Origin: an uncultured Acidobacteriota bacterium
GTDB lineage: Bacteria; Acidobacteriota; Terriglobia; Bryobacterales; Bryobacteraceae
DNA: 64,000 nucleotides
Assembly (NCBI GenBank): GCA_963832965.1
Contig: CAWHVW010000002.1
Span: 623,073 to 687,072, forward strand
Direction: 5' to 3'
This document shows, in pieces, positions 2,015 through 44,071 of this stretch. Under the pieces are notes generated by a model. The model had not been told where the DNA came from, did not search any database, and saw only the letters and a program-made list of their open reading frames with translations. The translations under genes and the position numbers were made by a program. Each line of letters begins with the position of its first letter. Positions within the stretch are counted from its first letter, which is position 1.

Positions 2015-3397
2015 ATGTTGGGCTTGAAGCTGACGGATACCGAGCCGGGGTCCTTGCCCGGAGGCCGCGGCAGGAAATTTCTTGCCGGTGTTTTTTCGCT
2101 CGGTCTGCACGCCGTCCTCATTCTTGGATTTCTCTTCGTACAACGGCTGGTCCCGCCGTCGCGCCCGATCTATGAAACGTACATTCAGCCGAATGAGGCC
2201 AAACTGATTTGGCGGCACATTGCCCAACCCTTGCCGGAGGTGTCGCCCAGTCCGTCAACGGTGCGCAACCGGCCCCGCGTGCAGGTTCGCACCGAGCAAA
2301 CCATCGTCGTGTCATCGCCCAAACCGGCCAGCAGGCGGCAAATGGTTTGGCAGCCTAAAACGCCGGAAACGCTGACCCACGACGTGCCCACCCGGAACGT
2401 GATTGAGGTCCCTCCGCCTTCCATTTCGCAAGCGGCGGCAACGCCGTCTCCTATCCCCGTCACCAGGAGCTTCGTCCCACCGCCAAAGAGCGAACCCACG
2501 CCCGTGCCGAACGCTCCCACTCTGGTCGCGCCCGACGCGCCGGCGATACAGGAGGGGCTTTCGGCAATGTCCGCCGTCCCGCTCGCGTCACGAACGTTCG
2601 TCCCGCCTCCACCCGAAGCTTCCACCCGCGGTTCCGGAGATACGGGCCTGCAGGCGCCGCCATCTCTGGGAGCGGGCGCGCTGTCCCAGTCCCAATCGCC
2701 CGTCGCCGTCGTGGGGCTCGACGCCCCTAATCGCAGCATGCCTCTTCCACCGGGATCGCGCGAAGCGCAATTTTCGACTGGCCCGGTTTCCGGAACCGGT
2801 CCGGCGGGGGGAAACGGCGTGCACGTCCCCGGGCTGACCATTCACGGGGTCAATGGGGCGGAGGCCGGTTCCTCCGGGACCACCCGAACCGCCGTCGCCA
2901 CCCCCACCCGTGAGATCCTCTACCGCGACGTCTCCGGCACCAGCGGGATACAGTCCATCTCCGCGCCCTTGCGCGCCGGAGCAAGGCGGATTCCGGCGAT
3001 GATCGAGAATCACTTCGCCGGCCGCAACGTGTACGTTCTCGCGCTGGCGGCTCCTCGCCTGCCTTGCTACTCCGGCGAATGGGTTCTGTGGTTCGGCGAG
3101 CGGAACGAGAAATCGTTCGAGTCGCCCAGAATCAGGGCTCCCCTTCCTTTCCGCAAAAGGGAAATCGTGGGAGAGCAACTCGCCGGCGGCTCGGTCACCA
3201 CCAGGGCCGTACTGTCCATAGTCATCTCGGCGAATGGAACCGTCGAATCGGTGAAGCCGCTCGAGGGTGTTACCGCGGAGACGGAGCGCCGGATCACCGG
3301 CGAGGTTCAGTCGTGGCAATTCCTGCCCGCGCTCCGCGACGGAGTCGCCATACCGGTCGATGCCATCGTGGCGATCCCATTCCGGCTTGCCCCATGA
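2015..3397 (+). CDS. TonB-family energy-transducer-like protein
   Basis: ORF 1961..3397. N-terminal TM helix (FLAGVFSLGLHAVLILGFLFV), long Pro-rich linker, C-terminal TonB_C-like end (GTVESVKPLEGV...VQSWQFLPALRDGVAIPVDAIVAIPFRL). Start taken at the internal Met MLGLK. Confidence 0.6.
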   Translation: MLGLKLTDTEPGSLPGGRGRKFLAGVFSLGLHAVLILGFLFVQRLVPPSRPIYETYIQPNEAKLIWRHIAQPLPEVSPSPSTVRNRPRVQVRTEQTIVVSSPKPASRRQMVWQPKTPETLTHDVPTRNVIEVPPPSISQAAATPSPIPVTRSFVPPPKSEPTPVPNAPTLVAPDAPAIQEGLSAMSAVPLASRTFVPPPPEASTRGSGDTGLQAPPSLGAGALSQSQSPVAVVGLDAPNRSMPLPPGSREAQFSTGPVSGTGPAGGNGVHVPGLTIHGVNGAEAGSSGTTRTAVATPTREILYRDVSGTSGIQSISAPLRAGARRIPAMIENHFAGRNVYVLALAAPRLPCYSGEWVLWFGERNEKSFESPRIRAPLPFRKREIVGEQLAGGSVTTRAVLSIVISANGTVESVKPLEGVTAETERRITGEVQSWQFLPALRDGVAIPVDAIVAIPFRLAP

Positions 3398-3836: not shown

Positions 3837-4374
3837 ATGACGCCTCAGTGGTTTGCAGTTCGCGTGCAATCGCGATGCGAAAAAGTGGTTGCTGCCGCCG
3901 CCCGCGGCAAGGGCTTCGAGGACTTTCTGCCCGCTGCACCGGTACCGGCATCGCTGGTCCGACCGGTCCAAGTGGGTGGAGGTTCCGCTGTTTCCTGGCT
4001 ACCTGTTCTGCCGATTGAATCCCGAAGAACGGTTCTCTCTTCTGACCATCCCTGGCGTCATGCATATTGTCGGCGTGGGCAGGACCCCCGAGCCGGTGGA
4101 CGAGCAGGAAATCTTGGCGATCCAGCATGCCGTCGCGCTCGGATGCCAGCGTCGAGCCGTGGCCCTTCGTCGAAGCAGGGCAGCGCGTCCGTCTCTCAAC
4201 GGACCGTTGCAGGTCTCGAAGGAATCCTCGTCGAGGCCAATGAGGAGCGCCGCGTGGTCGGTCGGACTGACCGTTCTGAAGCGATCCGTCGCGGTGAAGA
4301 TCGAACGCGATTGGATGGAGCCGATGGCCCGCTCGGCCGTCTCGGCCGCGTCCTCGTCCGCACTGAAATTCTGA
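3837..4374 (+). pseudogene. NusG-paralogue (RfaH/UpxY-like) transcription antiterminator, broken by about 5 frameshifts
   Basis: The pieces MTPQWFAVRVQSRCEKVVAAAARGKGFEDFLP, YRHRWSDRSKWVEVPLFPGYLFCRLNPEERFSLLTIPGVMHIVGVGRTPEPVDEQEILAIQHAVALG, ASVEPWPFVEAGQRVRL, GLEGILVEANEERRVV and VGLTVLKRSVAVKIERDWMEP lie in different frames. They are collinear with the intact paralogue at 48935..49540. Confidence 0.75.
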
Positions 4375-4392
4375 CCCGGCTTAAGGTTCACT

Positions 4393-5495
4393 ATGGTACC
4401 TAATGCGACTCCGGATTATGGATTTCTCACTGAGGAGGCGTTCGTCCGCAGGCTCCATTTGGAGCAAAAGAGAACGGAGCGGTCGCGGCGGCCGTTCGTC
4501 TTTGTGCTGCTGGAGGCGAGGAACCTCATCAAGGGCGGGCAGAAGCAGGGAGTGTGCGAGCGGATTGCGGAGACGCTGGCGACTTTCCACCCGCGAGACC
4601 GACATCAAGGGATGGTACGAGAAGGGATCGTCCATCGGCGTGATTTTCACGGAGGTCGGCGCGGCGCCCGGCGCTTCGATCGGGAATGCTCCTCGTCGCC
4701 AAGATCCAGCGTCTGCTGGAGAGCAAACTGACCGCGCGCGAACTCGGCGAGGTCACACTTTCCTTTTATGTTTTCCCCGAGGACTGGGATATCGGAAGCA
4801 AGAGCGGCTCCGCCGCGGCCATCCTTTATCCGGACTCAGTGCGCGCCAAAAAAGCCTCGCAGCTCGTCAAGCGATGCGTGGATATTGCCGGGAGCCTTTG
4901 CTGCGATCGTTCTGGGATCGCCCGCTGTTTCTGCTGATCGCGGCCTTGATCAAGCTGACTTCGAAGGGTCCCGTTCTCTTCCGGCAGGAGCGAGTGGGCC
5001 AATACGGCCGCAAGTTCACTTTCCTGAAGTTCCGTTCCATGTACGTGAACAACGATCACGCCATTCATCGGGAGTACGTGAAGAGTTTGATCGCAGGCGT
5101 CCGCGGATTTGAAAGATGCCCCGGGCGGGCATCGGAAGTTCTACAAGCTCACGAACGACCCGCGCATCACCCGGATCGGCGGATTCCTGCGAAAAACCAG
5201 CTTCGATGAGATCCCGCAGTTCCTCAACGTCCTGCGGGGAGAGATGTCGCTGGTCGGGCCGCGGCCGCCGATCCCCTACGAAGTCGAGAGCTACGACATC
5301 TGGCATCGGCGGCGCTTGCTGGGGGTGAAGCCGGGAATCACCGGGCTGTGGCAGGTTGCCGGGAGAAGCCGGACCACCTTTGATGAGATGGTTCGGCTGG
5401 ACCTGCAATACGCGAAGTCGTGGTCGTTTTGGCTGGACCTGAAGATTTTGTTACAGACGCCGCGCGCGGTGGTTGCCGGCGACGGCGCTTATTAA
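4393..5495 (+). pseudogene. Priming sugar transferase (Bac_transf / polyprenyl glycosylphosphotransferase family), about 5 frameshifts
   Basis: The C-terminal catalytic region is split between frames: [45 protein letters not shown], then [43 protein letters not shown]...GITGLWQVAGRS. The N-terminal part is spread over ORFs 4393, 4403, 4686 and 4768. Confidence 0.8.
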
Positions 5496-5519
5496 TTTAG
5501 ACGGAGAGGATATCGAGGC

Positions 5520-6525
5520 ATGATTCGATTTGGCGTTATCGGTTACGGATATTGGGGACCCAACATAGTCCGTAATCTGCACGGTCTTGATTCGGCGCAG
5601 GTCGTTGCAATCTGCGACCAGAACGAGACCGCCTTGCGCCGGGCCAAGCAGGCTTACCCCGGCATTCGCGTGACCGACCGACTGTTCGGAGCTCCTGACG
5701 TCTCCGGATATCGACGCGATCGCGGTGATCACTCCGGTCTGGACTCATTTTGAGCTGGCCAAGAGCGCGCTTAGACAACGGGAAGCACGTTTTCGTCGAG
5801 AAGCCATTCACGTCCACGTCCGCCCAGGCCGAGCAACTGATCGATCTGGCGGAACAAAAGAATCTTCAAATCATGGTGGACCATACGTTCCTGTTCACCG
5901 GCGCCGTGAAGAAGATTCGCCAGCTGATCGATGACAACACGCTGGGCAAGCTCTACTACTACGACTCCACCCGCGTGAACCTGGGTCTTTTCCAGCATGA
6001 CGTGAACGTGCTGTGGGATCTTGCTCCTCACGATTTGTCCATCGTCGACTATCTGATTGGGGAGCGGCCCGAGGCGATCGTCGCCACCGGCGAGAAGCAC
6101 CTGAACGGGCTGACCGATGTCGCCTATCTCACGGCCTACTTCCCGGACAACGTCATCGCGCACATCAATGTGAACTGGCTTTCGCCGGTCAAGGTTCGGA
6201 CCACGCTGATCGGCGGAGAAAAGAAGATGCTGGTGTGGAACGATCTCGAGGCGGACGAGAAGATCAAGGTCTACGACCGCGGCGTCAAGATGAACAACCG
6301 CGAAGGGCGTCTACAACCTGCTGGTCAGCTACCGCTCCGGCGACATGTGGGCGCCGAAGATCGAGGCGGCGGAAGCGCTGAAGGCCGAGCTGGCGTACTT
6401 CGTGCGAGTGCATCCATAGCGGCGAGCCGCCCATCAACGACGGCCTGGCGGGCTTGCGAATCGTGCGAATGCTCGAAGCGGCCGAGGAATCCTTGAAGCG
6501 CAAGGGGGAGGCGGTGTACGCGTGA
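5520..6525 (+). pseudogene. Gfo/Idh/MocA-family NAD-dependent oxidoreductase (WbpB-like), about 4 frameshifts
   Basis: MIRFGVIGYGYWGPNIVRNL (Rossmann fold). ELLTSPDIDAIAVITPVWTHFELAKSAL and GKHVFVEKPFTSTSAQAEQLIDLAEQKNLQIMVDHTFLF lie in other frames. The tail VYNLLVSYRSGDMWAPKIEAAEALKAELAYF / CIHSGEPPINDGLAGLRIVRMLEAAEES is in two further frames. Confidence 0.8.
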
Positions 6526-6999
6526 ACGACTTCAGGTGCATTGCGGCGGACGTCAAGCTCGGCAAGGACGTCAAGCTGGCGCAGTTCGTGAACCTCTATG
6601 GCTGCGAAATCGGCGATGAGACCAAGATCGGAGCGTTCGTCGAGATCCAGAAGAACGCGCGGGTCGGCGCGAGGTGCAAGATCTCCAGCCACACCTTCGT
6701 TTGCGAAGGCGTGACCATCGAAGACAACGTCTTCATCGGGCACAACGTGGCGTTCATCAACGACACCTATCCGCGCGCGACCACTCCGGAGCGGCGAGTT
6801 GCAAACCGAGCAGGACTGGAAAGTCGAAACCACGCTGGTAAAGAAGGGCGCCTCCATCGGATCCGGCGCCACGATTCTCGCCAACGTGACCATCGGCGAG
6901 AACGCCATGGTGGGCGCCGGCAGCGTCGTCACCAAGGACGTTCCGGCGAATACGGTGGTCGCCGGCAATCCGGCGCGCGTCTTGCGGAGTGTGGCCTGA
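6522..6999 (+). pseudogene. Left-handed beta-helix (hexapeptide) N-acetyltransferase (WbpD/WxcM-C-like), 1 frameshift near 6790
   Basis: ORF 6522 (..[57 protein letters not shown]) continues in ORF 6799 ([55 protein letters not shown]). Confidence 0.8.
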
Positions 7000-7017
7000 G
7001 GCCGTCGGGAGCGCGAA

Positions 7018-8229
7018 ATGAGCAGCGCAAACGAAATTCCATTTCTGGACCTCGTCACTCCTCACGCGGAGTTGAAGGAAGAGCTGTGCGAGGTGTTCAA
7101 CACCGCCCTGGAGACCGCCGGCTTCATCGGCGGTCCGATGGTGCAGGGCTTCGAGACAGGATTTCGCGCGGTACTGCGAGGCCGCGCATTGCGTGGGCGT
7201 CGGCAGTGGAACGGATGCGCTGCGGTTTGCGCTGATCGCCGCCGGTATCGGCGCCGGTGACGCCGTCGTCACCGTTCCGAACACCTTCATCGCGACCACC
7301 GAGGCAATTTCGCAGGCGGGCGCGCGGCCGGTCTTCGTGGACATCGACGAAGCCACTTACAACCTCGATCCGGAAAAGCTTCGCGAGTACCTCGAGGCCG
7401 GGTGCGACCTCGATTCGAAGACCGGAGACGCTGATCGACAGGAAGACCGAGAGCTCGCGTAGCGGCAGTCATCCCGGTCCACCTGTACGGCCAGATGGCG
7501 GACATGGATCCCGATCCTCGAACTCGCCGAGCAATACGACCTGATCGTCATCGAAGACGCCTGCCAGGCGCACGGCGCGGAGTATTTCTCGAAGAAGCAG
7601 AACCGCTGGTGCAAAGCCGGGTCGATGGGCCGGGCCGCCGCATTCAGCTTTTATCCGGGCAAGAACCTCGGCGCCTGCGGAGAAGCGGGTGCGGTGACCA
7701 CGAACGACGCGGAGCTGGCGCAGAAAATGCGAATGCTTCGCGACCACGGCCAGGCCCAGAAGTATTATCACGACATGGAAGGCTACAACGGCCGGCTGGA
7801 TTCGATCCAGGCCGGCATTCTGCGGGTCAAGCTGAAGCATCTCCCGGAGTGGACCGAGGGGCGCCGCGCGGCTGCGGCCCGCTACCGGGAATTGTTCGCG
7901 GACAGCGGATGCAACGATTGCGCTTGCCGTACGAGCCGGAGTGGAGCAAGGCCGTCTATCACCTGTTCGTGGTGCAGGGTCGCAGGACCGGGAAGAGCTC
8001 ATGAAGCACCTGGCCGCCGCGGGCATCGGCACCGGAATCCACTACCCGATTCCGCTGCACCTTCAGAAGGCCTATCAGGGGCTGGGCTATTCGGAGGGCG
8101 ATTTCCCGGTCGCCGAGAAGGTCGGCAGCCGAGATCGTGTCGTTGCCCATGTTCCCGCAACTACAGGCGAGTCAGCAGCAGAGGGTCGTCAGCGAAGCGA
8201 TGGCGTTTGCCGCGGCCACCATGGCTTGA
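7018..8229 (+). pseudogene. DegT/DnrJ/EryC1/StrS-family PLP sugar aminotransferase (WbpE-like), about 7 frameshifts
   Basis: Collinear pieces lie in alternating frames: [109 protein letters not shown]...[68 protein letters not shown]. Confidence 0.8.
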
Positions 8230-8236
8230 TTGCGCG

Positions 8237-9070
8237 ATGCCACGGGCGGACGACCTCGCAACCCGCTATTTCTTCCATCCACTCAAGGCCTTATTCCCCC
8301 CGGGTTCGCGCCTTCCGATACTCATGTATCACAGCATCTCGAATCGGGAGGAGCGGGCTCACCCTTACTACCGGACGGTTACGTCTCCCGAAGTTTTCGC
8401 GCAGCACATGCATCACCTGCACGAAAACGGATACTCGACGCCCGGCCTGCAGGAAGCCGTGGGGTGGCTCGACGCGCCTCGCAATGGCCAGGGGAGGCCG
8501 GTAGTCATTACCTTCGACGACGGCTTTCAGGATTTCTACACGAACGCCTTCCCGATCCTGAGCCGGTACGGTCTTGGCGCCACCATGTTTCTGCCGACGG
8601 CTTATATCGGGAAAACGGCGCGTACCTTTAAGGGAGCGGACTGCATGACCTGGGGGCAGGTCCGCGAACTGCGCGAAGCGGGCGTCGAATTCGGTTCCCA
8701 TACGGTGACTCATCCCCAGCTCAAGACTCTGAAGGACGAAGAGGTTCAGCGGGAGATTCAACAATCCCGGGAGGACATCGAGCAGGAGCTGGGTGGCGCC
8801 GTTACCTCTTTCGCGTATCCCTACGCCTTTCCGGAGACGGACCGGGCCTTCACCGCCAGGCTCCGCGGGCACCTTCAGCAGTCGGGTTACCAGACCGGCG
8901 TATCCACGAGCATCGGGAGGGCCAGCCAGACCGATGACAAGTTTTTTATGCGCCGGCTGCCGGTGAATTCCTGTGACGATTCGCGCCTTTTTGCGGCCAA
9001 GCTGGACGGCGGCTATGACTGGCTGCACGCGGTCCAGTATGCGTCCAAGCTAATCTCCGGGCGCAAGTGA
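8237..9070 (+). CDS. Polysaccharide deacetylase (CE4/NodB family)
   Basis: In frame inside ORF 7625..9070, starting at ATG 8237. Motifs [30 protein letters not shown]. Confidence 0.8.
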
Positions 9071-9200
9071 TTTCCTTAAGGCGTACTCTGTAGAACCCTG
9101 TAGATTCAAATCCTTAGCCAGGACCGGTTCATAATTCACCCAGGCAAGGTAGACTAGAGTTCTCACCAATACCTGACGATATGGTACCCGGAGAGCTGGA

Positions 9201-10790
9201 GTGCTAATGAGATTCTTGACAAAGTTGTCGTGCCTTGCAGTGGCGCTTCTGGGATTGTGCGCAACCTGCGGTTCTGCGAACGCCAGCGCCGTGAACATTT
9301 ACATTGCTCAGAGCGCGGCGGGATCCGCCAATGGAAGCAGTTGCGCCAACGCGTTCGCCTATTCATTCTTCAACAGCGGCTCGAACTGGGGAAGCGGCGC
9401 GGCGCAAATCGGACCGGGCACCACGGTGCATCTTTGCGGGACCATCACCTCCGTGCTCAGCGTTCAGGGCAACGGGTCCAGCGCGGGCGTCGTCACCATC
9501 CTGTTTGAAAGCGGCGCGCAGCTCAGTGAGCCGGTTTGTCCCTATTCCGGTTGCCTGGCTTTGGGATCGCACAGCTACATCACCGTCAATGGCGGAACCA
9601 ACGGCATCCTGCAGAACACCGCCAACGGGAGTGCCCTCGCCAATCAGTCGGCCTCCGAAGGCATCGTCGGCGGCGGCAGCTACATCACCATCGAAAACCT
9701 GACCATCCAGAACTTATATGTGCAGACGACCGGCGACAGCAAGCTTGGCGACAGCTCCACCGTTCGGTGTATCAGCTGGCAGGGCTCCAACTGGACCATC
9801 ACCAACAACACGCTCCATGACGCGGGATGGTGCCTGGACGATTTCTACAACAATGGCGACAGCAACGTTACCATATCGAATAACAATATATACGCCGTAG
9901 GGCACGGGATCGCTTTTGCCACCAGCGGAGCCAACTCGTTCACCAACCTGGTCATTTCCGGCAACCACATCCACGACGTTTCCAACTGGGCGGACAGCGG
10001 ATGCAGCTACCACGACGACGGCATGCACTTCTTCGGGACGGCTGGCAGTTCCATGTCCGGCATCTACGTTTATAACAATCTGATCGACGGTGCCTGGGGA
10101 ACGTGCCCGACGGGGTACGTCTTCGTGGAAGGAGGATCCAGCAGCACGCCCTCCAATATGTCGAACAGCTACTGGTGGAACAACGTAATGGTTGTGCAGG
10201 CGGGGGCCATCGTTAATACGAATGGCTGGTTTGGCCTTTTCTCGGGAGTCAGCGGCGTAACCGAACTATTCAACAACACCATCGTTGGAGCTAACGCCAC
10301 CGACAACACCGCCTGTTTCAATATCGGTCCGGTCACCGGATTGTCGTTTGAAAACAATACGGCCTCGCCCTGCGGCAACCCGGTCAGCATCAGTAGTTCC
10401 ACGGTGACCGTGGCGAACCACAACTTCTACGGACCTTCCTGTCAAAACGGATCGAACTGTTTCGTTTGGAACAGCAAGTACACCGGATCGTTTTCGTCCT
10501 GGAAGAGCGCCTGCAACTGCGATTCCAGCTCCATCCAGAACAGCACATCGTTGTTGAGCGCAGTTGGTGTTCCGTCGTCGGGATCTCCAGTGATCGGGCA
10601 GGGCCTCGATCTCACCAGCATAGCCACGGGATATCTGGCGTCTCTGCAGGATGACACCAGTGACGGCGACACGCGCACGCCGGGAGTGCGGCCTCCCACC
10701 GGGGCCTGGGACATAGGGGCGTATGAGTTCTCGTCCGCCACGTCCGGCGTGTTGGTCCCGCCGACGGCTCTGGCCGCGACCCCCCAATAA
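9201..10790 (+). CDS. Secreted right-handed parallel beta-helix (pectate-lyase-fold) protein, possible EPS-modifying enzyme or depolymerase
   Basis: 529 aa with signal peptide (LSCLAVALLGLCATCGSANA). Many repeated N-x-x-I/beta-helix rungs (ITIENLTIQN, WTITNNTLHD, VTISNNNIYA, LVISGNHIHD). C-terminal WDIGAYEF motif typical of this fold family. Confidence 0.6.
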   Translation: MLMRFLTKLSCLAVALLGLCATCGSANASAVNIYIAQSAAGSANGSSCANAFAYSFFNSGSNWGSGAAQIGPGTTVHLCGTITSVLSVQGNGSSAGVVTILFESGAQLSEPVCPYSGCLALGSHSYITVNGGTNGILQNTANGSALANQSASEGIVGGGSYITIENLTIQNLYVQTTGDSKLGDSSTVRCISWQGSNWTITNNTLHDAGWCLDDFYNNGDSNVTISNNNIYAVGHGIAFATSGANSFTNLVISGNHIHDVSNWADSGCSYHDDGMHFFGTAGSSMSGIYVYNNLIDGAWGTCPTGYVFVEGGSSSTPSNMSNSYWWNNVMVVQAGAIVNTNGWFGLFSGVSGVTELFNNTIVGANATDNTACFNIGPVTGLSFENNTASPCGNPVSISSSTVTVANHNFYGPSCQNGSNCFVWNSKYTGSFSSWKSACNCDSSSIQNSTSLLSAVGVPSSGSPVIGQGLDLTSIATGYLASLQDDTSDGDTRTPGVRPPTGAWDIGAYEFSSATSGVLVPPTALAATPQ

Positions 10791-10796
10791 GAAGCA

Positions 10797-10814
10797 ACGA
10801 GGGTTCGCCCTCGT
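10797..10814 (+). terminator. Hairpin just after the beta-helix gene stop
   Basis: ACGAGGG-ttcg-CCCTCGT, 7-bp perfect stem, 7 nt after the TAA. No T-tract follows. Confidence 0.35.
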
Positions 10815-10917
10815 AAAGACCATTCCTGATGACTGCGGTTCCGCCGGGACCCCTTTTCGCCGGCGCGCCGAAACACTCCTGATTAGCTTGGCCAGGTTCA
10901 GTTCCGACTGACCGACT

Positions 10918-12507
10918 ATGGATACGGAAGGCAACAACACCCCTGTGGCGGATCGAGGTCTCGCGGCCTCGATTGGCAAGAATACGCTGTTCGGTGTCGT
11001 ATCCAACGTCGTCCAGGTGGGCACGCGATTCGTCACCGTCCCGATTGTAATTCACTACCTGGGTCTGGGCGGCTACGGCATCTGGAACATCATCATGATG
11101 ACCGCCAACTACATGCGCTTCGGCAGCGTTGGCGTCAAGACTGCCTTCCAGAAGTATGTCGCCGAAGCTACCGGTAACGGCGACTACGAACGAGCCAACA
11201 AGCTCCTGAGCACCGGCAGCGCCGTCATGCTCGTGCTTTCCGTCGCCGGATTGATTCCCGTCGCCTTGTTTTCCCACCGCATCGCGAAAGCAGCGGGTGT
11301 TCCGTCCGAGCTCCTGAATTCCGCGGGCGGAGCCATTTCTCTGCTCGCGCTCATCATGCTGATGGCGAATGTGGGCGCGGCCTTCGAATCCATTGTCACG
11401 GGAGGCCATCGCATCGATCTCGTCCGGAAAGTCAGCACCGTGCTGGCGATTGCCGAAGCCATCGGCATCGTGGTCGCGCTCCACCTGGGCGGCGGCCTGT
11501 TTGCCATGGCCGGGGTGATGGGAACCTCCGAGCTCATCTACATAAGTTGTTGTTACTTCGCGTCCTCGCGGGTGCTTCCCCAGGTCCGCATTGGAATCAG
11601 GTTTGTCACCCGGGATGTACTCTACGAGCTGTTCCGATTCGCCGGAAGCTACCAGCTTGTCAATCTCCTCGAGGTGCTCTACGCGTCGCTCCTGCCGGTG
11701 GCCATTCTGCGAACGTTTGGGGCGAACTCCGCGGGCGTTTATGCGGTGGTAACCCGCGTCACGTCCTCCGCCGGAGTTTTGCAGCAGGCGTTCCTTCCGT
11801 CGATATTGTCTGGCGGCACCAAGGTCTTCGCCTCGGGGTCGCCGCAGAAGATGCAGGCCCTGGTGACCAAGGCATTCAAAGTGACGCTGGGCCTTTCACT
11901 ACCCCTGGGTTTTATCGCCGTGTTCGGCACCACCATGGCTTACGCCTGGACTGGCCGGGCCGATCCTTCCTTCCGGGTGGCGTTCTGGTTAGTCTGTCTG
12001 ACCGCCATCTTCTCGGCGTTCTCCATGCTGGCGCTGGTCCTTTACAGGATTTCCGGGAAGGGGCTGTTGGATAACATTCGGCAGGTCCTGCGAATCGCAG
12101 TTATTCTGACGGTGGTGGCTCTCGCCCGCAAACTGGGCTTCTACGGCGTTCTGGGCGGTCTGGCTGTTACTGAATTTGCTGGAATGGTGTTCATGCTGGT
12201 TGCTCTTTCCCGCACCTTCCATCTCTTCCGCGCCAGTTCTCTGCTGCCCGACGCGGCCCGGCTGGCAACCGCCGCGGCGGTGATTCTCGGAGTGGGAGCG
12301 GCAGCGTCGCTTCTGCCTCTGCCGGGCGATCCCGCGGGGCGCACGTTTGCGACAATCAGGCTGCTGGAGATAGGTTTGGCCTGCCTGCTGGTGGCCTGGC
12401 CCTCACTGCGGGGGACCGGGGCGGTCACCGCAGCCGAGGGACGGGCGCTTTTCGGCACCTTCATGCCTCGCCACGGAGTTCTCATTGCGCGACAAGCAGG
12501 TGACTGA
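10918..12507 (+). CDS. Oligosaccharide flippase (Wzx / MOP-superfamily polysaccharide biosynthesis protein)
   Basis: 529 aa, hydrophobic throughout with at least 12 predicted TM segments. Position inside a GT-rich locus. Confidence 0.65.
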   Translation: MDTEGNNTPVADRGLAASIGKNTLFGVVSNVVQVGTRFVTVPIVIHYLGLGGYGIWNIIMMTANYMRFGSVGVKTAFQKYVAEATGNGDYERANKLLSTGSAVMLVLSVAGLIPVALFSHRIAKAAGVPSELLNSAGGAISLLALIMLMANVGAAFESIVTGGHRIDLVRKVSTVLAIAEAIGIVVALHLGGGLFAMAGVMGTSELIYISCCYFASSRVLPQVRIGIRFVTRDVLYELFRFAGSYQLVNLLEVLYASLLPVAILRTFGANSAGVYAVVTRVTSSAGVLQQAFLPSILSGGTKVFASGSPQKMQALVTKAFKVTLGLSLPLGFIAVFGTTMAYAWTGRADPSFRVAFWLVCLTAIFSAFSMLALVLYRISGKGLLDNIRQVLRIAVILTVVALARKLGFYGVLGGLAVTEFAGMVFMLVALSRTFHLFRASSLLPDAARLATAAAVILGVGAAASLLPLPGDPAGRTFATIRLLEIGLACLLVAWPSLRGTGAVTAAEGRALFGTFMPRHGVLIARQAGD

Positions 12508-12508
12508 G

Positions 12509-13201
12509 ATGGGCGATGCGGACGCTCCCGGCGCGCCTTTTCCGGACCCGCTGTCGCTCCTCTTCCGCCTGGCGACGAAGCTCAGCACATGGTGGCGGCG
12601 AAGCACATATCCATTCTCCGCATTCGGCCGGGGCGTCTCCATTCACTATTCGTCGGAGATCTCCCGGTCGGCTGCCAGGTTCATACAATTTGGCGACGGG
12701 GTCATTATCGGGAAAGACGTCTGGCTCAACATCGTGGCTGAGACCGGTGGCGACGCCTCGAAAATCGTGCTGGCCCGAGGCTGCAGAATCGGCCGAAGGT
12801 CAACCATCTCGGCCAGAAACCACATATCGTTCGGTGATGACGTCCTGCTGGCCCCGTCCGTCCTGATCATGGATCACAACCACGAGTACACCGACCCTCT
12901 GGTGCCCATCGGCGAACAAGGCGTCACCGAGGGAGGGAGAATTGATATCGGAAGCAACTGCTGGCTCGGGCATGGTTCCGTCGTTTGCTGCGGGAGCGGG
13001 GAACTCTCCCTGGGCCAAAACAGCGTGGTGGCGGCGAACGCGGTGGTCACCCGGAGCTTTCCACCGTTCAGCGTGATCGCGGGTAACCCGGCCAGGCTCG
13101 TCAAACGGTATGATCCTAATGTCGGCAAATGGGTTCGCGCCGACCGCGAACTTCCGGAAACGGATCCGGCGAAGGTCCTGAGTTCGAATGAGCAGCGCTA
13201 A
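12509..13201 (+). CDS. Hexapeptide-repeat acyl/acetyltransferase
   Basis: ORF 12485..13201. GCRIGRRSTISARNHISFGDDVLLAPSVLIMDHNH...IDIGSNCWLGHGSVV...VVAANAVVTRSFPPFSVIAGNPARLV. ATG 12509 lies 2 nt after the flippase stop. Confidence 0.75.
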   Translation: MGDADAPGAPFPDPLSLLFRLATKLSTWWRRSTYPFSAFGRGVSIHYSSEISRSAARFIQFGDGVIIGKDVWLNIVAETGGDASKIVLARGCRIGRRSTISARNHISFGDDVLLAPSVLIMDHNHEYTDPLVPIGEQGVTEGGRIDIGSNCWLGHGSVVCCGSGELSLGQNSVVAANAVVTRSFPPFSVIAGNPARLVKRYDPNVGKWVRADRELPETDPAKVLSSNEQR

Positions 13202-14174
13202 CGGCCACAGCCCGCGCACCTGCACCGTCTGCCGGCGCAACGCCCCGCAGGATTGGCTGCGCGCGCCAGACCGGTTTCACGGCCGGCAGGAGCTGTACCG
13301 GCTGGTCCGCTGCCCGTCGTGCTCTCTGGTCTGGTTGGACAACCCTCCACCGCCCGATGAGATGGCTGAGCACTACGGGACGGACTACGACACGCTGATC
13401 GCAGCGGTCGGAGAAGCCGACGTAGCGAAGCGCTGGCGCAAGCCGCGAGAAGTTCTGCTGCGCTATAAGTCTGGCGGCGCCATTCTCGATCTGGGCGCCA
13501 GTTCAGGCGGTTTCCTGGCGTCCCTGAAGGACCGGCCATGGGAACTCCACGGGGTGGAGATTTCCGAGACTGTGGCCAGGCGCGCGCAGGAGAACACCGG
13601 CGCGAAGATGTTTGTGGGCGATGTCATGGACGCGCCGTACGCGCCGGACACTTTTGACGCGATCACGTGCTTTCACGTCCTCGAGCATCTGTATCAGCCG
13701 CGCGAAGTACTCGAAAAAGTTCGCGAATGGCTCAAGCCCGGCGGCATCTTCATCACCTACCTGCCGAATATCGACTCCGGCGCGGCCCGGTTGTTTGGTT
13801 CCTACTGGTATGCCCTCGAACTGCCCCGGCACCTCTATCATTTCTCCCCGGTGGCGCTCCGTCAGTTGGCGCAATCGGTGGGGTTTGACGAGGTCGAAAT
13901 CAGCACCCACCGTGAGCCGTTCATTCCGATGAGCGCAAGATATTTCAACGACGCCATTTTGCGAAAACTGGGTGTTTCGCGGGTGCCGCCGGCATACGCC
14001 GGGCCCCGGAGCCTTCCGTGGAGGGCGATGCGCAAGGCGTTCAAGCTGACTATGTTGCCGGTGTTGGACAAGTTGGTAGCGATGGCCGGTCCGGGCGAGA
14101 TCATGCACGCGGTTCTGAAGAAGCCGGACTGCGTGGGGGCTGAGTGCCGCAAGGCCGGCGAGTTGTCCGCGTGA
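13188..14174 (+). CDS. Class I SAM-dependent methyltransferase with N-terminal Cys4 zinc ribbon
   Basis: CTVCRR...CPSCSLVWLD, then ILDLGASSGGFL (motif I) and FDAITCFHVLEHLYQP. Confidence 0.75.
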   Translation: MSSANGHSPRTCTVCRRNAPQDWLRAPDRFHGRQELYRLVRCPSCSLVWLDNPPPPDEMAEHYGTDYDTLIAAVGEADVAKRWRKPREVLLRYKSGGAILDLGASSGGFLASLKDRPWELHGVEISETVARRAQENTGAKMFVGDVMDAPYAPDTFDAITCFHVLEHLYQPREVLEKVREWLKPGGIFITYLPNIDSGAARLFGSYWYALELPRHLYHFSPVALRQLAQSVGFDEVEISTHREPFIPMSARYFNDAILRKLGVSRVPPAYAGPRSLPWRAMRKAFKLTMLPVLDKLVAMAGPGEIMHAVLKKPDCVGAECRKAGELSA

Positions 14175-14241
14175 GTTTCTCACCTGCTGTTCGTGAGCGC
14201 GCAATCGCGGGCGCGGACGTTTCTGCCGGGGAGTCCGCTCG

Positions 14242-15183
14242 GTGAAAATCAGCGTCATCATTCCGGCATACAACTGCGCCGGAACCATGCGTGCCACGCT
14301 CGACTCGGTGTTAGCTCAAACGCTGCGCCCGGATGAGATTCTCGTCATGGACGACGGGAGCACGGATGAAACTTCCGCGATTCTGGATTCATACGGTGAC
14401 GCCATTATCGTCTTCCGGCAGAAAAACGGCGGACTCTCGAGCGCGAGAAACTTCTTGTGCGCGAGGGCGAATGGCAGCCTCCTCGCTTTCCTGGATTCCG
14501 ACGACCTCTGGCACCCTCGATACCTGGAAGTACAATTCGAACTATTTTGCAAGTATCCTCATGCCGCCCTGTTTTTCATTGGGCACGAGAACTTCTACGA
14601 AGACGACGCTCATAGCTGGCCTTCCAGCCTCCCGGACTGTCCCAGTGACGAGATTCCTGCGTTGACCTTTCTTCAGCGTTACAACCAGGAGACCGGCCCC
14701 TTTAGCTCCTATAGCTTTTGCTGTGTGCCACGGGAAGTCCTGGCTCGGATTGGCGGAACACCCTTCCAGGCCGACGGCGCCGAAGATTTTTACTGCACGG
14801 CTCTTCTTTGCCTTCTCGGACCGGCGATCTACTGCGCAACCCCGCTGGCTGCCTACCGGGTCAGGTCGGGGTCGCTCTCGAGCAAACGAGTTGCCGGTCT
14901 TGCCGCCAGAGTGCGCGCTTTCGAACTTCTCGAAGGACACTACACCGAATTTGCGTCCCCCGAGTTTCTCGAAGCCTTCAAGTCTCTGTTTTCCTCCCAT
15001 CGGCGGGTCTATGCCAAATACCTGATGGGCGTGCGCAATACCGCCGACGCTCGCCGGCAACTGGGGCGCTCCATGACGCATTCCAAAAGGGCGATATCGC
15101 TCGCGAAGTCCATTGGCTTGCTCTGCTCAACGTACCTTCCCACGCAGTTGCAACCCGCGTGGCCAACGCGCTATCAACGATGA
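14242..15183 (+). CDS. Family 2 glycosyltransferase
   Basis: KISVIIPAYNCAGTMRATLDSVLAQT...ILVMDDGSTDET...FLDSDD. Confidence 0.85.
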   Translation: MKISVIIPAYNCAGTMRATLDSVLAQTLRPDEILVMDDGSTDETSAILDSYGDAIIVFRQKNGGLSSARNFLCARANGSLLAFLDSDDLWHPRYLEVQFELFCKYPHAALFFIGHENFYEDDAHSWPSSLPDCPSDEIPALTFLQRYNQETGPFSSYSFCCVPREVLARIGGTPFQADGAEDFYCTALLCLLGPAIYCATPLAAYRVRSGSLSSKRVAGLAARVRAFELLEGHYTEFASPEFLEAFKSLFSSHRRVYAKYLMGVRNTADARRQLGRSMTHSKRAISLAKSIGLLCSTYLPTQLQPAWPTRYQR

Positions 15184-15243
15184 GCGTCGGCAGCAGGGCG
15201 CGAAACGTGCGCCCGAAGAAAAACCAACGCAAGATCCTGTTCC

Positions 15244-16629
15244 ATGCCCGATAGCAGCCACTACTTAGGAGGCGGCGCAACAGCAACCGTCCTGCACCCG
15301 GTTGTGCTGCTCGCAATGCTTCTTGCCATTGCGCTGATCTTTGCTTTGCCCAGGAAATATGCGGTTGCCCCGGTGTTGATCAGCGTCTTCCTGATCCCCA
15401 TGGGTCAACAGATCGTCATCGGCGGAACGCACTGGCAGGTGGCCCGGATCATCGTTCTGTGCGCCGCTGTCAGGGTGATGTCGAGACGGGAATCCATTGC
15501 CGGCGGATTCAATTTCGTCGACTGGGCGTTCCTTGGCTGTATTCTCTGCGAGGCGCTTGGCTTAGTCGTCCAGTACAACATGCAGTCCCAGGCATGGGTC
15601 ACCGACTTCGGGTTTCTGATGGACTGGGGTTGCGGCTACTTCGCGTTGCGAGCGCTGATCCGTGACGAGGAAGATGTCTACACGGCCTTGCAGTGGGTGG
15701 CCGGGGTGACCGTGGTTGTGGCGCTTGCCATGGTCGGGGAACAATTGACCCGGGTGAACGTCTTCGGGCTCCTCGGAGGAGTCGCCCCAATTCCTGAAAT
15801 GCGCGAGGGCAGGATTCGCTCGCAAGGCGTGTTCCAACATCCATTGACGGCCGGAACTTTCGCGGCGGTGCTCCTGCCGCTTTTCTTTCTGCTGTGGAAG
15901 AACGGGAAATCGAAAATCTCCGCGACGATGGGAATAGCGGGCTGCAGCATCATGACCATGTGTTCGAATTCCAGCACGCCCCTGCTGGCCTGGGTTGCCG
16001 GCGTGTTCGCGGTTTTTCTCTGGCCGCTGCGCCGGAACATGCGAACGATACGGCTCACGCTTGTTGCCGTCCTGGTAGTTCTGCACCTCGTCATGAAAGC
16101 TCCCGTGTGGTTCCTGATTGCGCGCATCGACCTCACTGGCGGCTCGTCCGGTTATCACCGCGCCGAGCTGGTGGATCAGTTCATTCGGCATTTTTCCGAA
16201 TGGTGGCTCGCCGGAACCAAGGATTCAGCTTCGTGGGGCACGGACATGTGGGATCAGCAAAACCAGTATGTAAATGTCGGTGAGGCAGGAGGGCTCGGCG
16301 CGCTGTTCTTTTTCACCGCGATGATCACCAGTTGCTGCTCGAGACTGGGGAAAGCGAGGAAAGTGGCGGAGGGCCAAAACCGGGAGTGGATGTTCTGGTT
16401 TCTTGGCGCGGCCATGTTTGCCAACCTGCTGGGGTTTCTCGGCATCAACTATTTCGATCAATCGCGGGTCGGCTGGTTCCTGTTGCTGGCGATAATCATG
16501 GCGGCCACCGCTCCGTTCCTGCAGCCGAACGTGGAACTGGCGCCGGTTGTGGACGCTGAGGTAACCTACGCCGGGGCTTTCGCGGACCCTTCGGAATCGG
16601 AACCCAGCCGCTGGGAGCAAGCCCGGTAA
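15244..16629 (+). CDS. O-antigen ligase/polymerase-like (Wzy-type) integral membrane protein
   Basis: 461 aa, about 10-12 TM segments plus one larger loop (DLTGGSSGYHRAELVDQFIRHFSEWWLAGTKD). Context next to GTs and the flippase. No exosortase motifs recognised. Confidence 0.55.
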   Translation: MPDSSHYLGGGATATVLHPVVLLAMLLAIALIFALPRKYAVAPVLISVFLIPMGQQIVIGGTHWQVARIIVLCAAVRVMSRRESIAGGFNFVDWAFLGCILCEALGLVVQYNMQSQAWVTDFGFLMDWGCGYFALRALIRDEEDVYTALQWVAGVTVVVALAMVGEQLTRVNVFGLLGGVAPIPEMREGRIRSQGVFQHPLTAGTFAAVLLPLFFLLWKNGKSKISATMGIAGCSIMTMCSNSSTPLLAWVAGVFAVFLWPLRRNMRTIRLTLVAVLVVLHLVMKAPVWFLIARIDLTGGSSGYHRAELVDQFIRHFSEWWLAGTKDSASWGTDMWDQQNQYVNVGEAGGLGALFFFTAMITSCCSRLGKARKVAEGQNREWMFWFLGAAMFANLLGFLGINYFDQSRVGWFLLLAIIMAATAPFLQPNVELAPVVDAEVTYAGAFADPSESEPSRWEQAR

Positions 16630-16694
16630 GTCTCCACCTCGCTCCGGAACACCCGCGAGCCTGCGGGCCGTCAATTGCCGAAGAAGTCAGACTC

Positions 16695-17894
16695 ATGCGC
16701 GTTCTCTACAGCTTCCCTCACAAAATAGGCGCCGATCGCATTTGCCACACCGCCTGGCAACAGGTTAACGGCCTGGTTGCGGCTGGCGTGGACGTGCTGG
16801 CCATGCCCGCCGCAATAGCGCGCCCCATCGCCGCGAAAGCGTGGCCAACCCTCGCGCGAGGGAAATACCGGATCCCCTTTAAGTTGATTGGCAAGTATCG
16901 GGCCTTCCGACTGCACGACGCTATCGTCGCCAGACGGCTGGAACGTCTGGCGCAAGAGATCGACCTGGTGCATGTGTGGCCCTCCGGCGCTCTCGCAACC
17001 ATCAACGCAGCGAAGCGCCTGGGCATCCCCACCGTTCTGGAACGTCCCAACGCTCATACACGCTACGCCTACGAAACCGTTCGCGCGGAGTGCGAGCGGA
17101 TTGGCGTTCAGCTTTCTCCCGGCGACGAATACAACTATCGTACGGACGTGCTGGCGCGAGAAGAAGAGGAGTTTCGTCTGGCGGACGCGCTGCTGTGTCC
17201 GTCGGACTTCGTCGTGCAGACGTTTCGAGATCAGGGATTTGATCCCGGCAAGCTGCTGCGGCACGCGTATGGCTTCGATGAAACCGTATACTCGCCGGAC
17301 CTCGGGCGCCCCCGAGCGGACGGCGGTTTGAGAATGCTGTTTGTGGGCGGGTGTGCGGTGCGAAAAGGGGTTCACTTCGCTCTCGAAGCCTGGGTAAAGT
17401 CTCCCGCGAGCGAAACCGGAGTGTTTCAAATCGCCGGACAATTTCTGCCGGCCTATGCAGAAAAGCTTCGCCCGCTGCTCGATCATCCGAGCGTGAAGGT
17501 GCTGGGCCATCGGAGAGACGTGCCGGAGCTGATGCGCCAGAGCGACATACTGGTGCTGCCCACGCTGGAGGAAGGCTCTCCGCTGGTGGTTGCCGAAGGA
17601 ATGGCCAGCGGATGCGTTCCGCTGGTGTCCGAGGTATGCACGGAGATGTGCACTCACCAGCACAACGCTCTCGTTCATCGCGTCGGAGACGTCGATGCGC
17701 TCAAGGCTCACATCACCTTGTTGCATGAGGACAGGGCGCTTCTCGCCAGACTGAGGGACGCCTGCCTTGCCGGGCGCTTGAAGTACACCTGGGGGGCGGC
17801 TGCGGATCAGCTTGTCCACGCCTATCAAACGGCGCTGAACCAGCACAAAGAACAAGGGCTGTTCGCCACCGCCAGAATGGGCTCGAAGAACTGA
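16695..17894 (+). CDS. Family 4 (GT-B, group 1) glycosyltransferase
   Basis: C-terminal Glycos_transf_1 signature DILVLPTLEEGSPLVVAEGMASGCVPLVSE. Confidence 0.8.
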   Translation: MRVLYSFPHKIGADRICHTAWQQVNGLVAAGVDVLAMPAAIARPIAAKAWPTLARGKYRIPFKLIGKYRAFRLHDAIVARRLERLAQEIDLVHVWPSGALATINAAKRLGIPTVLERPNAHTRYAYETVRAECERIGVQLSPGDEYNYRTDVLAREEEEFRLADALLCPSDFVVQTFRDQGFDPGKLLRHAYGFDETVYSPDLGRPRADGGLRMLFVGGCAVRKGVHFALEAWVKSPASETGVFQIAGQFLPAYAEKLRPLLDHPSVKVLGHRRDVPELMRQSDILVLPTLEEGSPLVVAEGMASGCVPLVSEVCTEMCTHQHNALVHRVGDVDALKAHITLLHEDRALLARLRDACLAGRLKYTWGAAADQLVHAYQTALNQHKEQGLFATARMGSKN

Positions 17895-18769
17895 TGAATA
17901 CGCAACGGAACAGATACGTCGTCATCACTCCGGTGCGCGACGAAGAGGACTATCTGCCGCTTACGGTGGAAAGCATCATCCGGCAGACCGTTCGCCCCGT
18001 GGAATACGTCATCGTGAACGACGGATCGAAAGACAAGACCGGAGAGATCATCGACCAGTACGCGCGGGAGTACCCCTGGATTCGCGCGGTCCACAGAACC
18101 GACCGCGGGTTCCGCAAATGGGGCGCCGGGATCATCGAAGCATTTTACGACGGTTTCAACGCGCTCACGTGCCCCGACTGGGATTTCGTTTCGAAGATGG
18201 ATGGAGACCTTTCCTTCGAGCCGGACTATTTCGAAAGCGCGCTCAACAAATTCGACGAGGACCCCAAACTCGGAATCGGCGGTGGGTTCCTCTACCACTT
18301 TCAGAACGGACAAAAAGTCATCGAGGCTCATCCGGCCTTTCATGTTCGCGGCGGCGCCAAGATTTACCGGCGGGCCTGCTGGGAAGGCCTCGGCGGGCTG
18401 TGGGTGGGGCCGGGATCGGACACGCTCGATGAAGTGAAAGCCAACATGCTGGGTTGGACCAGCCTGAGTTTCCTGGACCTGCAGATCCATCATCACCGCT
18501 TGACCGGCGCGACACTCGGCCAATGGGGAGGGATCGTCAAGAACGGGAAAACGGATTACGTCGCGGGCTATCATCCCCTCTTCCTGCTGGCCAAAGCGGC
18601 GGCCCGCCTCCGTCATCGGCCGTACATCGTCGGCTCGTTCGCGCTGCTCTATGGATACCTCCTGGCGTACATGAAGAAAATTCCACGGGTGGACGATCCG
18701 GCCCTGATTCAGTATTTGCGCCGCCAGCAGCTCGCCAGGCTAACTGGCGGGGAGACCATCTGGAAATGA
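17894..18769 (+). CDS. Family 2 glycosyltransferase
   Basis: YVVITPVRDEEDYLPLTVESIIRQTVRPVEYVIVNDGSKDKTGEII...SKMDGD. Start overlaps the upstream stop. Confidence 0.75.
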   Translation: MNTQRNRYVVITPVRDEEDYLPLTVESIIRQTVRPVEYVIVNDGSKDKTGEIIDQYAREYPWIRAVHRTDRGFRKWGAGIIEAFYDGFNALTCPDWDFVSKMDGDLSFEPDYFESALNKFDEDPKLGIGGGFLYHFQNGQKVIEAHPAFHVRGGAKIYRRACWEGLGGLWVGPGSDTLDEVKANMLGWTSLSFLDLQIHHHRLTGATLGQWGGIVKNGKTDYVAGYHPLFLLAKAAARLRHRPYIVGSFALLYGYLLAYMKKIPRVDDPALIQYLRRQQLARLTGGETIWK

Positions 18770-19734: not shown

Positions 19735-19760
19735 GTGTCATCAGTGGAAACGAGGTTCCT

Positions 19761-21683: not shown

Positions 21684-21702
21684 CCGAACCCCCTTACGCG
21701 CC

Positions 21703-24214: not shown

Positions 24215-24374
24215 GCCGTCTGGCTTATCCGCGCTCGCGGCCGATCGAGGATGCTCGCATCGTTTCCATTGAGGATCGGCGGGAGCTTCGCCAGGAAGTT
24301 GGGAACTAAGCCAGAGGGCGCCAGAACCGGCATCCGCTGGTCGCATTTCCGGATCGTTATCAGAGGATAGAACT

Positions 24375-25892: not shown

Positions 25893-25934
25893 CTCCATGA
25901 CCTCATTTCATCCACGAAGGGAAAGGAGCGCATC

Positions 25935-26747: not shown

Positions 26748-26843
26748 GCCTTGCCGTCCGCATTACCAGCTCTCTGTCAGAACCGCCATTGCTGACTCAA
26801 GACCGCTGCACTGCGGCGCGAAATTGCGCCGAAGTCATTCTTC

Positions 26844-28961: not shown

Positions 28962-29027
28962 CGGAAACGGAATGCCGCCAGCGCGGTTTGGCGCGGGTCC
29001 GGTCGCGGGAAGAGCGGTTCAGGCTGG

Positions 29028-42782: not shown

Positions 42783-42843
42783 CGAGTCATCAACCCTACC
42801 AGAGTGATGAAAACGACACAACCATGTATACACAGGTGAAAAT

Positions 42844-44001: not shown

Positions 44002-44010
44002 GCTCGGATT

Positions 44011-44039
44011 ACGGAACCGCGACGGTGACGGAGCGGGGA
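44011..44039 (+). repeat. Copy 1 (3' core only) of a dispersed intergenic repeat
   Basis: ACGGAACCGCGACGGTGACGGAGCGGGGA. The same core occurs at 46706..46735 and 48893..48922. Confidence 0.8.
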
Positions 44040-44052
44040 GTTTCCGGTTGTG

Positions 44053-44071
44053 CGCGGGGCCGTGCCCCGCG
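44053..44071 (+). terminator. GC-rich hairpin after the aldolase gene
   Basis: CGCGGGG-ccgtg-CCCCGCG, 7-bp perfect stem, no T-tract. Confidence 0.35.

Follow-up and report, generated by a model that had tools for sequence, protein, structure and literature searches.

The window analysed here, a stretch of 64,000 nucleotides from the assembly of an uncultured Acidobacteriota bacterium, carries close to its start a five-gene polysaccharide cassette that lies between two intact genes. An independent JGI contig of 177 kb, Ga0665309_00000409 (L109; sample 3300079084), holds the same locus and serves as the reference for the indels given below, with all coordinates being those of the window.

2015..3397, + strand: upstream flanking gene, intact, 460 aa, without a Pfam hit; identical in JGI and Logan contigs, forming the clean left flank
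3837..4384, + strand: NusG-like antiterminator paralogue (PF02357); insertions at 3934, 4105, 4133, 4260 and 4372, deletions at 4108, 4201 and 4211; L109 copy intact, 181 aa
3860..8137, no strand assigned: divergent, indel-laden tract, with all 331 substitutions and 35 indels relative to the JGI contig lying here, between identical flanks
4393..5495, + strand: Bac_transf initiating sugar-phosphate transferase (PF02397); insertions at 4582, 4688, 4901, 4924 and 5094; L109 copy intact, 365 aa
5520..6525, + strand: Gfo/Idh/MocA oxidoreductase; insertions at 5677, 5776, 6305, 6405 and 6454, deletion at 6450; L109 copy intact, 333 aa
6522..7021, + strand: left-handed beta-helix (hexapeptide) N-acetyltransferase; insertions at 6790 and 6997; L109 copy intact, 165 aa
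7018..8229, + strand: DegT/DnrJ/EryC1 sugar aminotransferase; insertions at 7155, 7429, 7452, 7513, 7530, 7903, 7917, 7974, 7977 and 8122, deletion at 7535; L109 copy intact, 400 aa
8237..9070, + strand: polysaccharide deacetylase, intact, 277 aa; shared without differences by the JGI contig and two Logan contigs, forming the clean right flank

An earlier, sequence-only reading had taken the five genes for an antiterminator, a priming transferase and a WbpB/D/E-like module. These identities hold at the Pfam level, where the adjacent Gfo/Idh/MocA, DegT and hexapeptide acetyltransferase trio is recognized in the intact copies as well as in the pieces in the window, but the WbpB/D/E label fits only loosely. 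The aminotransferase matches 7b0d (5e-104) and QdtB (6e-93) better than WbpE (E = 4e-73), the acetyltransferase matches WlbB (3mqg) at E = 7e-18 with a WxcM-like match ranking higher, and the oxidoreductase has no match to WbpB/WlbA structures at E ≤ 1e-20. Elsewhere in the window lie a dehydrogenase of the UDPG_MGDP_dh family (44111-45469), a candidate WbpA-type source of a UDP-GlcNAc-uronic acid, and a second NusG paralogue (48938-49636, PF02357).

Base-level alignment to the JGI contig places 35 indels in 3860-8137, the first at 3934 and the last at 8122, and together they break five consecutive genes. Eight fall in the NusG-like gene, 5 in the Bac_transf gene, 6 in the Gfo/Idh/MocA gene, 2 in the hexapeptide acetyltransferase gene and 11 in the DegT gene, with 3 being intergenic. 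They are single-base events at a rate of about 0.8%, four out of five being insertions of random bases (28 insertions and 7 deletions, an insertion share of 80%; binomial p = 0.0005), and no more than 4 or 5 of the insertions lengthen an existing run. Their concentration in the tract relative to the rest of the window is extreme (Poisson p about 1e-76), and the GC content and skew of the tract are in no way special. Frameshift-aware alignment to orthologues from a related genome (G006, locus L011) yields 22 frame changes in 3846-8205, of which 18 are +1, and no in-frame stops within the frame-hopping pieces; large deletions and nonsense codons are likewise absent from the five broken genes. 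Three insertion/deletion pairs, 4105/4108, 6450/6454 and 7530/7535, each displace just one or two codons. The burst described in the sequence-only reading is thus present, as are its attributes: about four in five shifts net +1, most shifts outside homopolymers, and neither in-frame nonsense codons nor large deletions in the pieces. Every shift point that it listed lies within 10 bases of a mapped one, and those overlooked are 4105/4108, 4372, 6450/6454, 6997, 7530/7535, 7917 and 7977.

Outside the tract the two sequences are practically the same. The window differs from the JGI contig once in 45,116 compared flanking bases, while the 4,278-bp tract holds 366 differences, and the sole flank difference is the length of the A-run at 24142. 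Apart from this run, the spans -7985..3859 and 8138..37961 show 0 mismatches and 0 gaps, and 42111..45557 is equally free of both, so that the description of the remaining window as essentially clean holds at the ORF level and, over these flanks, at the base level.

The substitutions inside the tract have a very different character from the indels. They number 331, a divergence of 7.7%, with 62% at third codon positions; mismatches at codon positions 1/2/3 count 74/51/205, 199 are synonymous and 131 non-synonymous, and a rough pN/pS relative to the JGI allele is about 0.24. The bases of the window at the mismatch sites are, moreover, common among 83 homologues, with a mean frequency of 0.42. 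Since they are biased to third positions and shared with homologues, the substitutions are natural variation, and it is only the indels that look like noise. These comparisons mark the tract as a real second allele carrying uncorrected long-read-type indels, and not merely a noisy copy of the intact version, and a single real second allele fits the substitution pattern better than a site-by-site mosaic. The borders of this allele are sharp and recombination-like, and lie inside the first and last genes of the cassette. A copy of the second allele free of errors was not found in any other data set examined. As a by-product, the cassette is seen as two alleles 7.7% apart between identical flanks, which is no more than the common exchange of alleles in a polysaccharide locus.

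A distinct real allele with such borders could also be read as the starting point of a genuine loss. Allelic exchange and inactivation are known to cluster in polysaccharide loci, and a divergent cassette allele may have been acquired by recombination and then have suffered about 30 frameshifting indels, with the priming transferase, the antiterminator and the amino-sugar branch being lost. We consider this recent pseudogenisation highly improbable, for several reasons. First of all, the disruptions are not reproduced in independent data of the same lineage. The intact allele is found in three further data sets from this population: beside the JGI contig, the Logan contigs L110, L111 and L115 (ENA runs ERR11523669 and ERR10755941) are 100% identical to it, extend into the tract from the left and from the right and are free of the indels of the window there. 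They overlap the tract in part, those of ERR11523669 stopping within the cassette in the interval from about 5267 to 7561. The comparison with the orthologous segment elsewhere, which had been proposed as a check, thus returned five intact genes in the JGI contig and the intact allele in the Logan contigs where they overlap the tract. The base-level indel calls rest on metagenome and JGI contigs, as genomes of the same genus lack close copies of the cassette and its best relatives among genomes, about 72% identical in nucleotide sequence, belong to other genera. Second, about 30 indels without one in-frame stop and without large deletions are unlike an ageing pseudogene. Third, the third-position bias and the low pN/pS do not speak of neutral decay; the nonsense codons, deletions and even spread over codon positions that would signal relaxed selection are all missing from the tract. 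Finally, the same insertion-biased signature is found in genes where real inactivation would not be viable.

This last point emerges from a genome-wide codon-usage scan, which returned about 24 merged patches covering about 61 kb, roughly 1% of the genome. The errors are gathered in these patches, which are sharp and 1-12 kb long, and are not spread over the genome, and the bias towards +1 shifts is confined to the patches (143/172 inside against 260/528 outside; Fisher p = 7e-16). Relative to the congener G004, the single-copy ribosomal-protein operon (C3:876.8-886.6 kb) carries about 70 insertions and 17 deletions of one base each, most of them confirmed by the congeners G001, G002 or G005, while the sole glnS has 8 insertions and 0 deletions relative to three congeners with intact copies. 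Further patches lie in the conserved genes ilvD and ATP synthase, and some in poorly conserved genes such as those for a phage terminase and a sensor kinase; C3:1340.1-1342.6 kb and C5:1448-1455 kb are among the patch positions. The patch list gives a minimum and includes some false entries, above all three small C2 clusters of balanced direction: the ab initio frameshift detector recovered only about 10 of roughly 22-29 shifts in the tract, and it makes false calls at overlapping gene boundaries (window 16585, 18733 and 22447, for example). A divergent allele is shown directly for one patch only, 3860-8137, and the indels are verified in two further patches, the ribosomal-protein operon and glnS. 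The burst had been thought exceptional and limited to this segment, a view that the roughly two dozen similar patches overturn. The assembly, in 8 contigs, has a completeness of 87.5%, a low value for so few contigs that is expected where indels break marker genes; completeness is thus probably underestimated owing to the same indels.

Two further readings would keep the indels as biology. In the first, the broken genes would be expressed by programmed recoding, each shift site being a place of ribosomal frameshifting or of transcriptional slippage. The pieces without in-frame stops agree with this, and nothing further does: the roughly 30 sites share no common slippery motif, none is conserved in the orthologues, which are all single open frames, +1 and -1 shifts are both present, and the same pattern recurs in unrelated genes genome-wide. 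We regard recoding as practically negligible. In the second, the indels would be physically real in a co-existing minor lineage whose recombined tracts were hit by an insertion-biased burst of single-base mutation. The chance of this is very slim; if true, the patches would record a localized mutagenic process, such as error-prone synthesis in the course of recombination, and not sequencing noise.

A third reading also treats the indels as artefactual but places their origin in sequence shared between genomes. The cassette would be common to other Acidobacteria of the sample (80-92% identity), and reads from several of them would have been merged, or a foreign cassette mis-joined, giving a mosaic or foreign allele with alignment-induced indels. 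The cassette is indeed widespread, with >595 metagenome stretches encoding relatives, and homology to the locus L018 covers exactly 3833-8230 and stops at the flanks. The Logan contigs of ERR11523669 break within the cassette, as expected for shared or branching sequence, and the patches in the ribosomal-protein operon, glnS, ilvD and ATP synthase lie in conserved genes, as a collapsed repeat would have it. Those in poorly conserved genes, on the other hand, speak against it. At the mismatch sites, furthermore, the homologue majority base agrees with that of the window only 147 times and with that of the JGI allele 100 times, and cross-taxon conservation does not correlate with mismatch density (rho = 0.04); a community-average consensus from cross-recruited reads finds no support on the same two grounds. 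The indels are not enriched beside variable sites either. Such a collapsed inter-genome repeat is, in our assessment, possible but rather unlikely. Two other candidate sources of the indels were considered. Homopolymer slippage is rejected, being at odds with the few shift sites in runs ≥3 and with the normal run-length spectrum of the tract. Conversion of SNPs into insertions by a mixed-allele consensus is not supported: it would bring indels close to mismatches, and they are no closer than random positions (median 8 vs 5 bases), which also counts against any one simple mixed-allele mechanism.

We thus return to consensus error. The burst of frameshifts is almost certainly no feature of the organism; the sequence comparisons make it very probable that the frameshifts are consensus errors of the assembly and not mutations. 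Two observations point to an artefact and not to gene loss, namely that unbroken copies of the genes occur in independent assemblies of this population and that the same error pattern is found in the ribosomal-protein operon. Of the two branches offered in the sequence-only reading, the artefact (thin coverage, mixed strains or a long-read patch left unpolished) is therefore supported by the intact independent assemblies and by the shared signature in the ribosomal-protein operon and glnS, whereas a recent inactivation, with loss of the initiating transferase, the antiterminator and the diacetamido-sugar branch, finds no support. We propose that the five-gene cassette is a strain-variable tract of which the assembly would carry a second allele at 3860-8137. 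This tract would have been built from few or mixed long reads, and its correction would have failed, probably since the accurate reads are mostly of the other allele; the same process may have left the other patches in this genome. The living population would then have intact copies of the antiterminator, the priming transferase and the oxidoreductase/acetyltransferase/aminotransferase trio. Within the artefact reading, we lean towards a low-coverage or unpolished minor allele, while a collapsed mixed-allele or mis-joined consensus is a serious possibility, though short of even. The classic nanopore error is a homopolymer deletion; random insertions outside homopolymers differ from it, and the long-read platform is a presumed one.

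The value of the finding lies in a practical warning on annotation. Among the genomes searched, this assembly is the one that represents its species. An uncritical reading of the annotation would suggest that the polysaccharide priming transferase, the antiterminator and the amino-sugar branch have been lost, and would list ribosomal proteins, glnS, ilvD, subunits of ATP synthase and efflux pumps as broken. Other frameshift bursts or pseudogene clusters from the assembly should be compared with the patch list before they are believed.

In terms of known systems, the adjacent enzyme trio resembles both the WbpB/WbpE/WbpD (WlbA/C/B) branch to UDP-2,3-diacetamido-2,3-dideoxy-uronic acid and the QdtB/QdtC 3-amino-sugar enzymes; the cassette aminotransferase is nearer to QdtB and 7b0d than to WbpE, and the sugar product is putative. 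Antiterminators that are NusG paralogues and are encoded first in polysaccharide loci include UpxY of Bacteroides and RfaH-like proteins. Here too, a gene with the PF02357 NusG N-terminal domain comes first in a polysaccharide cluster, and it is from this position that an antiterminator role may be suggested for it.

As for the errors themselves, ORF-truncating indels in long-read assemblies were reportedly described by Watson and Warr in 2019. Such indel-driven truncation is well documented, with dependence on coverage and microdiversity (PMC9262707, PMC8302730, PMC6785717), and the IDEEL test measures it in nanopore or PacBio CLR assemblies (PMC6785717, PMC9262707). The likeness extends to single-base indels, frame-hopping pieces, missing nonsense codons, lower marker completeness and the disappearance of the errors in more accurate assemblies. 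Usual long-read errors differ, however, from the sharp patches found here, with mostly random-base insertions instead of homopolymer deletions and, in the one patch directly tested, a divergent allele. Strain-collapsed consensus and the effects of microdiversity in metagenome assembly have been treated for Strainberry (PMC8302730) and for MAG quality (PMC9262707). There too, two haplotypes share identical flanks around a divergent tract, one path is output and consensus quality drops where haplotypes differ or coverage splits; in our case the haplotypes are deduced from assemblies, and the substitutions point to one second allele. Genuine pseudogene clusters of decaying genomes, for example in host-restricted bacteria, likewise show adjacent genes broken by frameshifts. 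Such decay is accompanied by nonsense codons, by deletions and by relaxed selection, and essential genes are spared, whereas the present tract has no stops and keeps its third-position bias, and the ribosomal-protein operon is equally hit.

The burst of frameshifts in the polysaccharide cassette of the window is no genuine property of the organism, and it is very improbable that the cells themselves carry its indels. The segments concerned are:

Window 3837-8229, plus strand: cassette of five genes, in order NusG-like, Bac_transf, Gfo/Idh/MocA oxidoreductase, hexapeptide acetyltransferase and DegT aminotransferase
Window 3860-8137: the tract, the indel-laden segment across the cassette

On the ORF map of window 3000-9500, the cassette lacks any long open frame and consists only of pieces of 30-250 codons that change frame repeatedly, while the genes on either side are intact. 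A frameshift-aware dynamic programme was used to align the window DNA with the orthologous proteins encoded, in the same gene order, at locus L011 on contig 17 of a related genome, G006. It rebuilt the five genes through 22 frame changes, of which 18 are +1, and no in-frame stop was found in any rebuilt piece. The window pieces and the intact orthologues match NusG (PF02357), Bac_transf (PF02397), GFO_IDH_MocA, Hexapep and DegT_DnrJ_EryC1 in Pfam. The remainder of the window contains uninterrupted ORFs of up to 5.2 kb. The sequence-only reading of a local burst in otherwise clean DNA is thus borne out, with each of its shift points lying within 10 bases of one located here.

Exact-protein look-up with the intact flanking genes as queries returned a JGI contig of 176,962 bp (Ga0665309_00000409, sample 3300079084) and four Logan contigs from ENA runs ERR11523669 and ERR10755941. 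The locus is also present in the JGI contig, where all five genes are intact (181, 365, 333, 165 and 400 residues) and a deacetylase identical to that of the window directly follows. Outside the tract, it aligns to the window as follows:

-7985..3859 (window and upstream sequence): 0 mismatches, 0 gaps
8138..37961: 0 mismatches, 0 gaps except one A-run length difference at 24142
42111..45557: 0 mismatches, 0 gaps

Every mismatch (331) and every indel (35, of which 28 are insertions and 7 are deletions in the window) is confined to the tract, giving 366 differences in 4,278 tract bases versus 1 in 45,116 flanking bases. The Logan contigs that overlap the tract (L110, L111 and L115) are 100% identical to the JGI allele and have none of the window's indels at any covered position; the other, L113, covers only sequence outside the tract, where it matches the window exactly. 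Five open frames are likewise found in L018 (Ga0182024_10002054), a more distant contig from a short-read metagenome (83% nucleotide identity); relative to it, the window has 27 one-base insertions and 4 deletions. The A-run at 24142, the single other frameshift suspected earlier, has five A in the JGI contig and four in the window and an ERR11523669 Logan contig, and the change affects a HAD-like hydrolase only at its C-terminal residues (598 or 578 versus 610 residues called).

The substitutions in the tract, on the other hand, are not noise. Relative to the JGI allele, 74, 51 and 205 of them fall on codon positions 1, 2 and 3, respectively (199 synonymous, 131 non-synonymous), and the mean base frequency at mismatch sites among 83 metagenome homologues is 0.42 for the window and 0.34 for the JGI allele. 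This codon-position pattern, together with the window bases being common in homologues, thus argues that the window has a real second cassette allele, 7.7% diverged, which begins 23 bases inside the first gene and stops ~90 bases short of the end of the last. A tract of this kind is what an exchange of alleles at a polysaccharide locus would leave, or else a cassette from a related population. Error-like behaviour is limited to the indels; they are mostly insertions, seldom in homopolymers and without stop codons, and the inserted bases are a near-even mix of the four nucleotides.

The burst is not the only one in the genome (8 contigs, 5.86 Mb, estimated completeness only 87.5%). A codon-usage model trained on its long ORFs was run as a seven-state Viterbi over all contigs, counting same-strand frame switches without a stop codon at the switch; the detector is insensitive, recovering ~10 of the tract shifts, and makes some false calls where gene ends overlap. 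It yielded 28 clusters, merged into 24 patches covering ~61 kb (~1% of the genome). Within clusters, 143/172 switches are +1 versus 260/528 outside (Fisher p = 7e-16), and the direction bias is thus common to all patches, beyond the cassette. The insertion-biased patches are:

C3:874.2-886.2 kb
C5:1448.4-1455.4 kb
C2:836.8-841.2 kb
C3:1545.5-1549.9 kb
C1:307.2-310.3 kb
C3:1678.7-1681.4 kb
C3:1340.1-1342.6 kb
C5:886.1-888.3 kb
C3:954.5-955.7 kb
about 14 more, smaller

Path translations place in the patches the ribosomal-protein operon (rpoA to rplB), glnS/gltX, ilvD, the ATP synthase operon, nirB, efflux and ABC transport genes, a hydantoinase and permease, a sensor kinase and a phage terminase. 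glnS, which occurs once in the genome, is broken into at least 5 pieces; it is a single open frame in four congeners (80-89% amino-acid identity), and DNA alignment with three of these gives 8 single-base insertions and 0 deletions in 1.6 kb. The single-copy ribosomal-protein operon (C3:876,770-886,576) has ~70 one-base insertions and 17 one-base deletions relative to one congener (G004), the majority confirmed by G001, G002 or G005. Since ~87 frameshifts in the sole ribosomal-protein gene set are not survivable, the process that made the patches is not biological mutation. Of the two explanations first offered, the artefact is therefore right, the indels being absent from independent contigs and the pattern recurring in essential genes, and the inactivation is wrong. 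Gene calls inside the patches are not to be trusted, and the patch list is itself a useful output.

How the indels arose is less certain. With flanks essentially error-free and ~0.8% indels in the tract, the evidence behind the tract consensus must be much weaker or more contradictory than that behind the flanks. The simplest account would be a long-read draft with few reads for the window's allele; its correction may have been blocked by the other allele, which is 8% different and present in most accurate reads. Long-read assemblies are known to suffer indels that truncate ORFs and reduce completeness, with coverage, polishing and microdiversity as determinants (PMC9262707, PMC8302730, PMC6785717). 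A collapsed inter-genome repeat, or a foreign cassette mis-joined here, is also possible, given that the cassette is very widespread (>595 stretches) and that Logan contigs break within it. Two versions of a mixed consensus are not supported. For one with indels at variable sites, the indels are no nearer variable sites than chance. For a community-average consensus, the homologue majority agrees with the window at 147 sites and with the JGI allele at 100, and mismatches show no correlation with conservation.

Contigs of the intact allele from ERR11523669 end at ~5267 from the left and resume at 7561, those from ERR10755941 resume at 7772, and the break spans the oxidoreductase and acetyltransferase genes; this suggests branching at ~5267-7561 via several alleles or k-mers common to other community members. 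Elsewhere in the window, a dispersed intergenic repeat of ~110 bp, probably REP- or MITE-like, lies at 46641-46761 (C2:669713-669833), with another copy just upstream of the window (C2:622698-622815). More than 40 copies (81-95% identity) are found on all large contigs of the genome, one within the spacer of the ribosomal-protein operon, and weaker copies in G004. Furthermore, three intact and very large genes (1745, 1529 and 1306 aa) at 29028-42782 form a hybrid NRPS-PKS line with AMP-binding, condensation, ketosynthase, acyltransferase, carrier and thioesterase domains, set inside the polysaccharide cluster with glycosyltransferases on one side and a UDP-sugar dehydrogenase on the other.

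The gene content of the locus is usual for Acidobacteria: the polysaccharide cluster starts with a NusG paralogue, followed by a Bac_transf priming transferase and then the oxidoreductase/acetyltransferase/aminotransferase trio, predicted to add an acetamido group to a nucleotide sugar. The homology of L018 to the window covers exactly 3833-8230, starting and stopping at the cassette borders, and the flanking sequences are unrelated. None of the five same-genus genomes sampled has a close copy, and within the family three genomes from other genera carry the cassette at ~72% identity. This distribution suggests lateral exchange of the whole module. Compared with known systems, the acetyltransferase matches WlbB at 7e-18. 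The WbpB/D/E-like label given earlier is fair as to chemistry and putative as to membership: no WbpB-type structure reaches the threshold for the oxidoreductase, and the aminotransferase, although matching WbpE at 4e-73, is better matched by QdtB and 7b0d.
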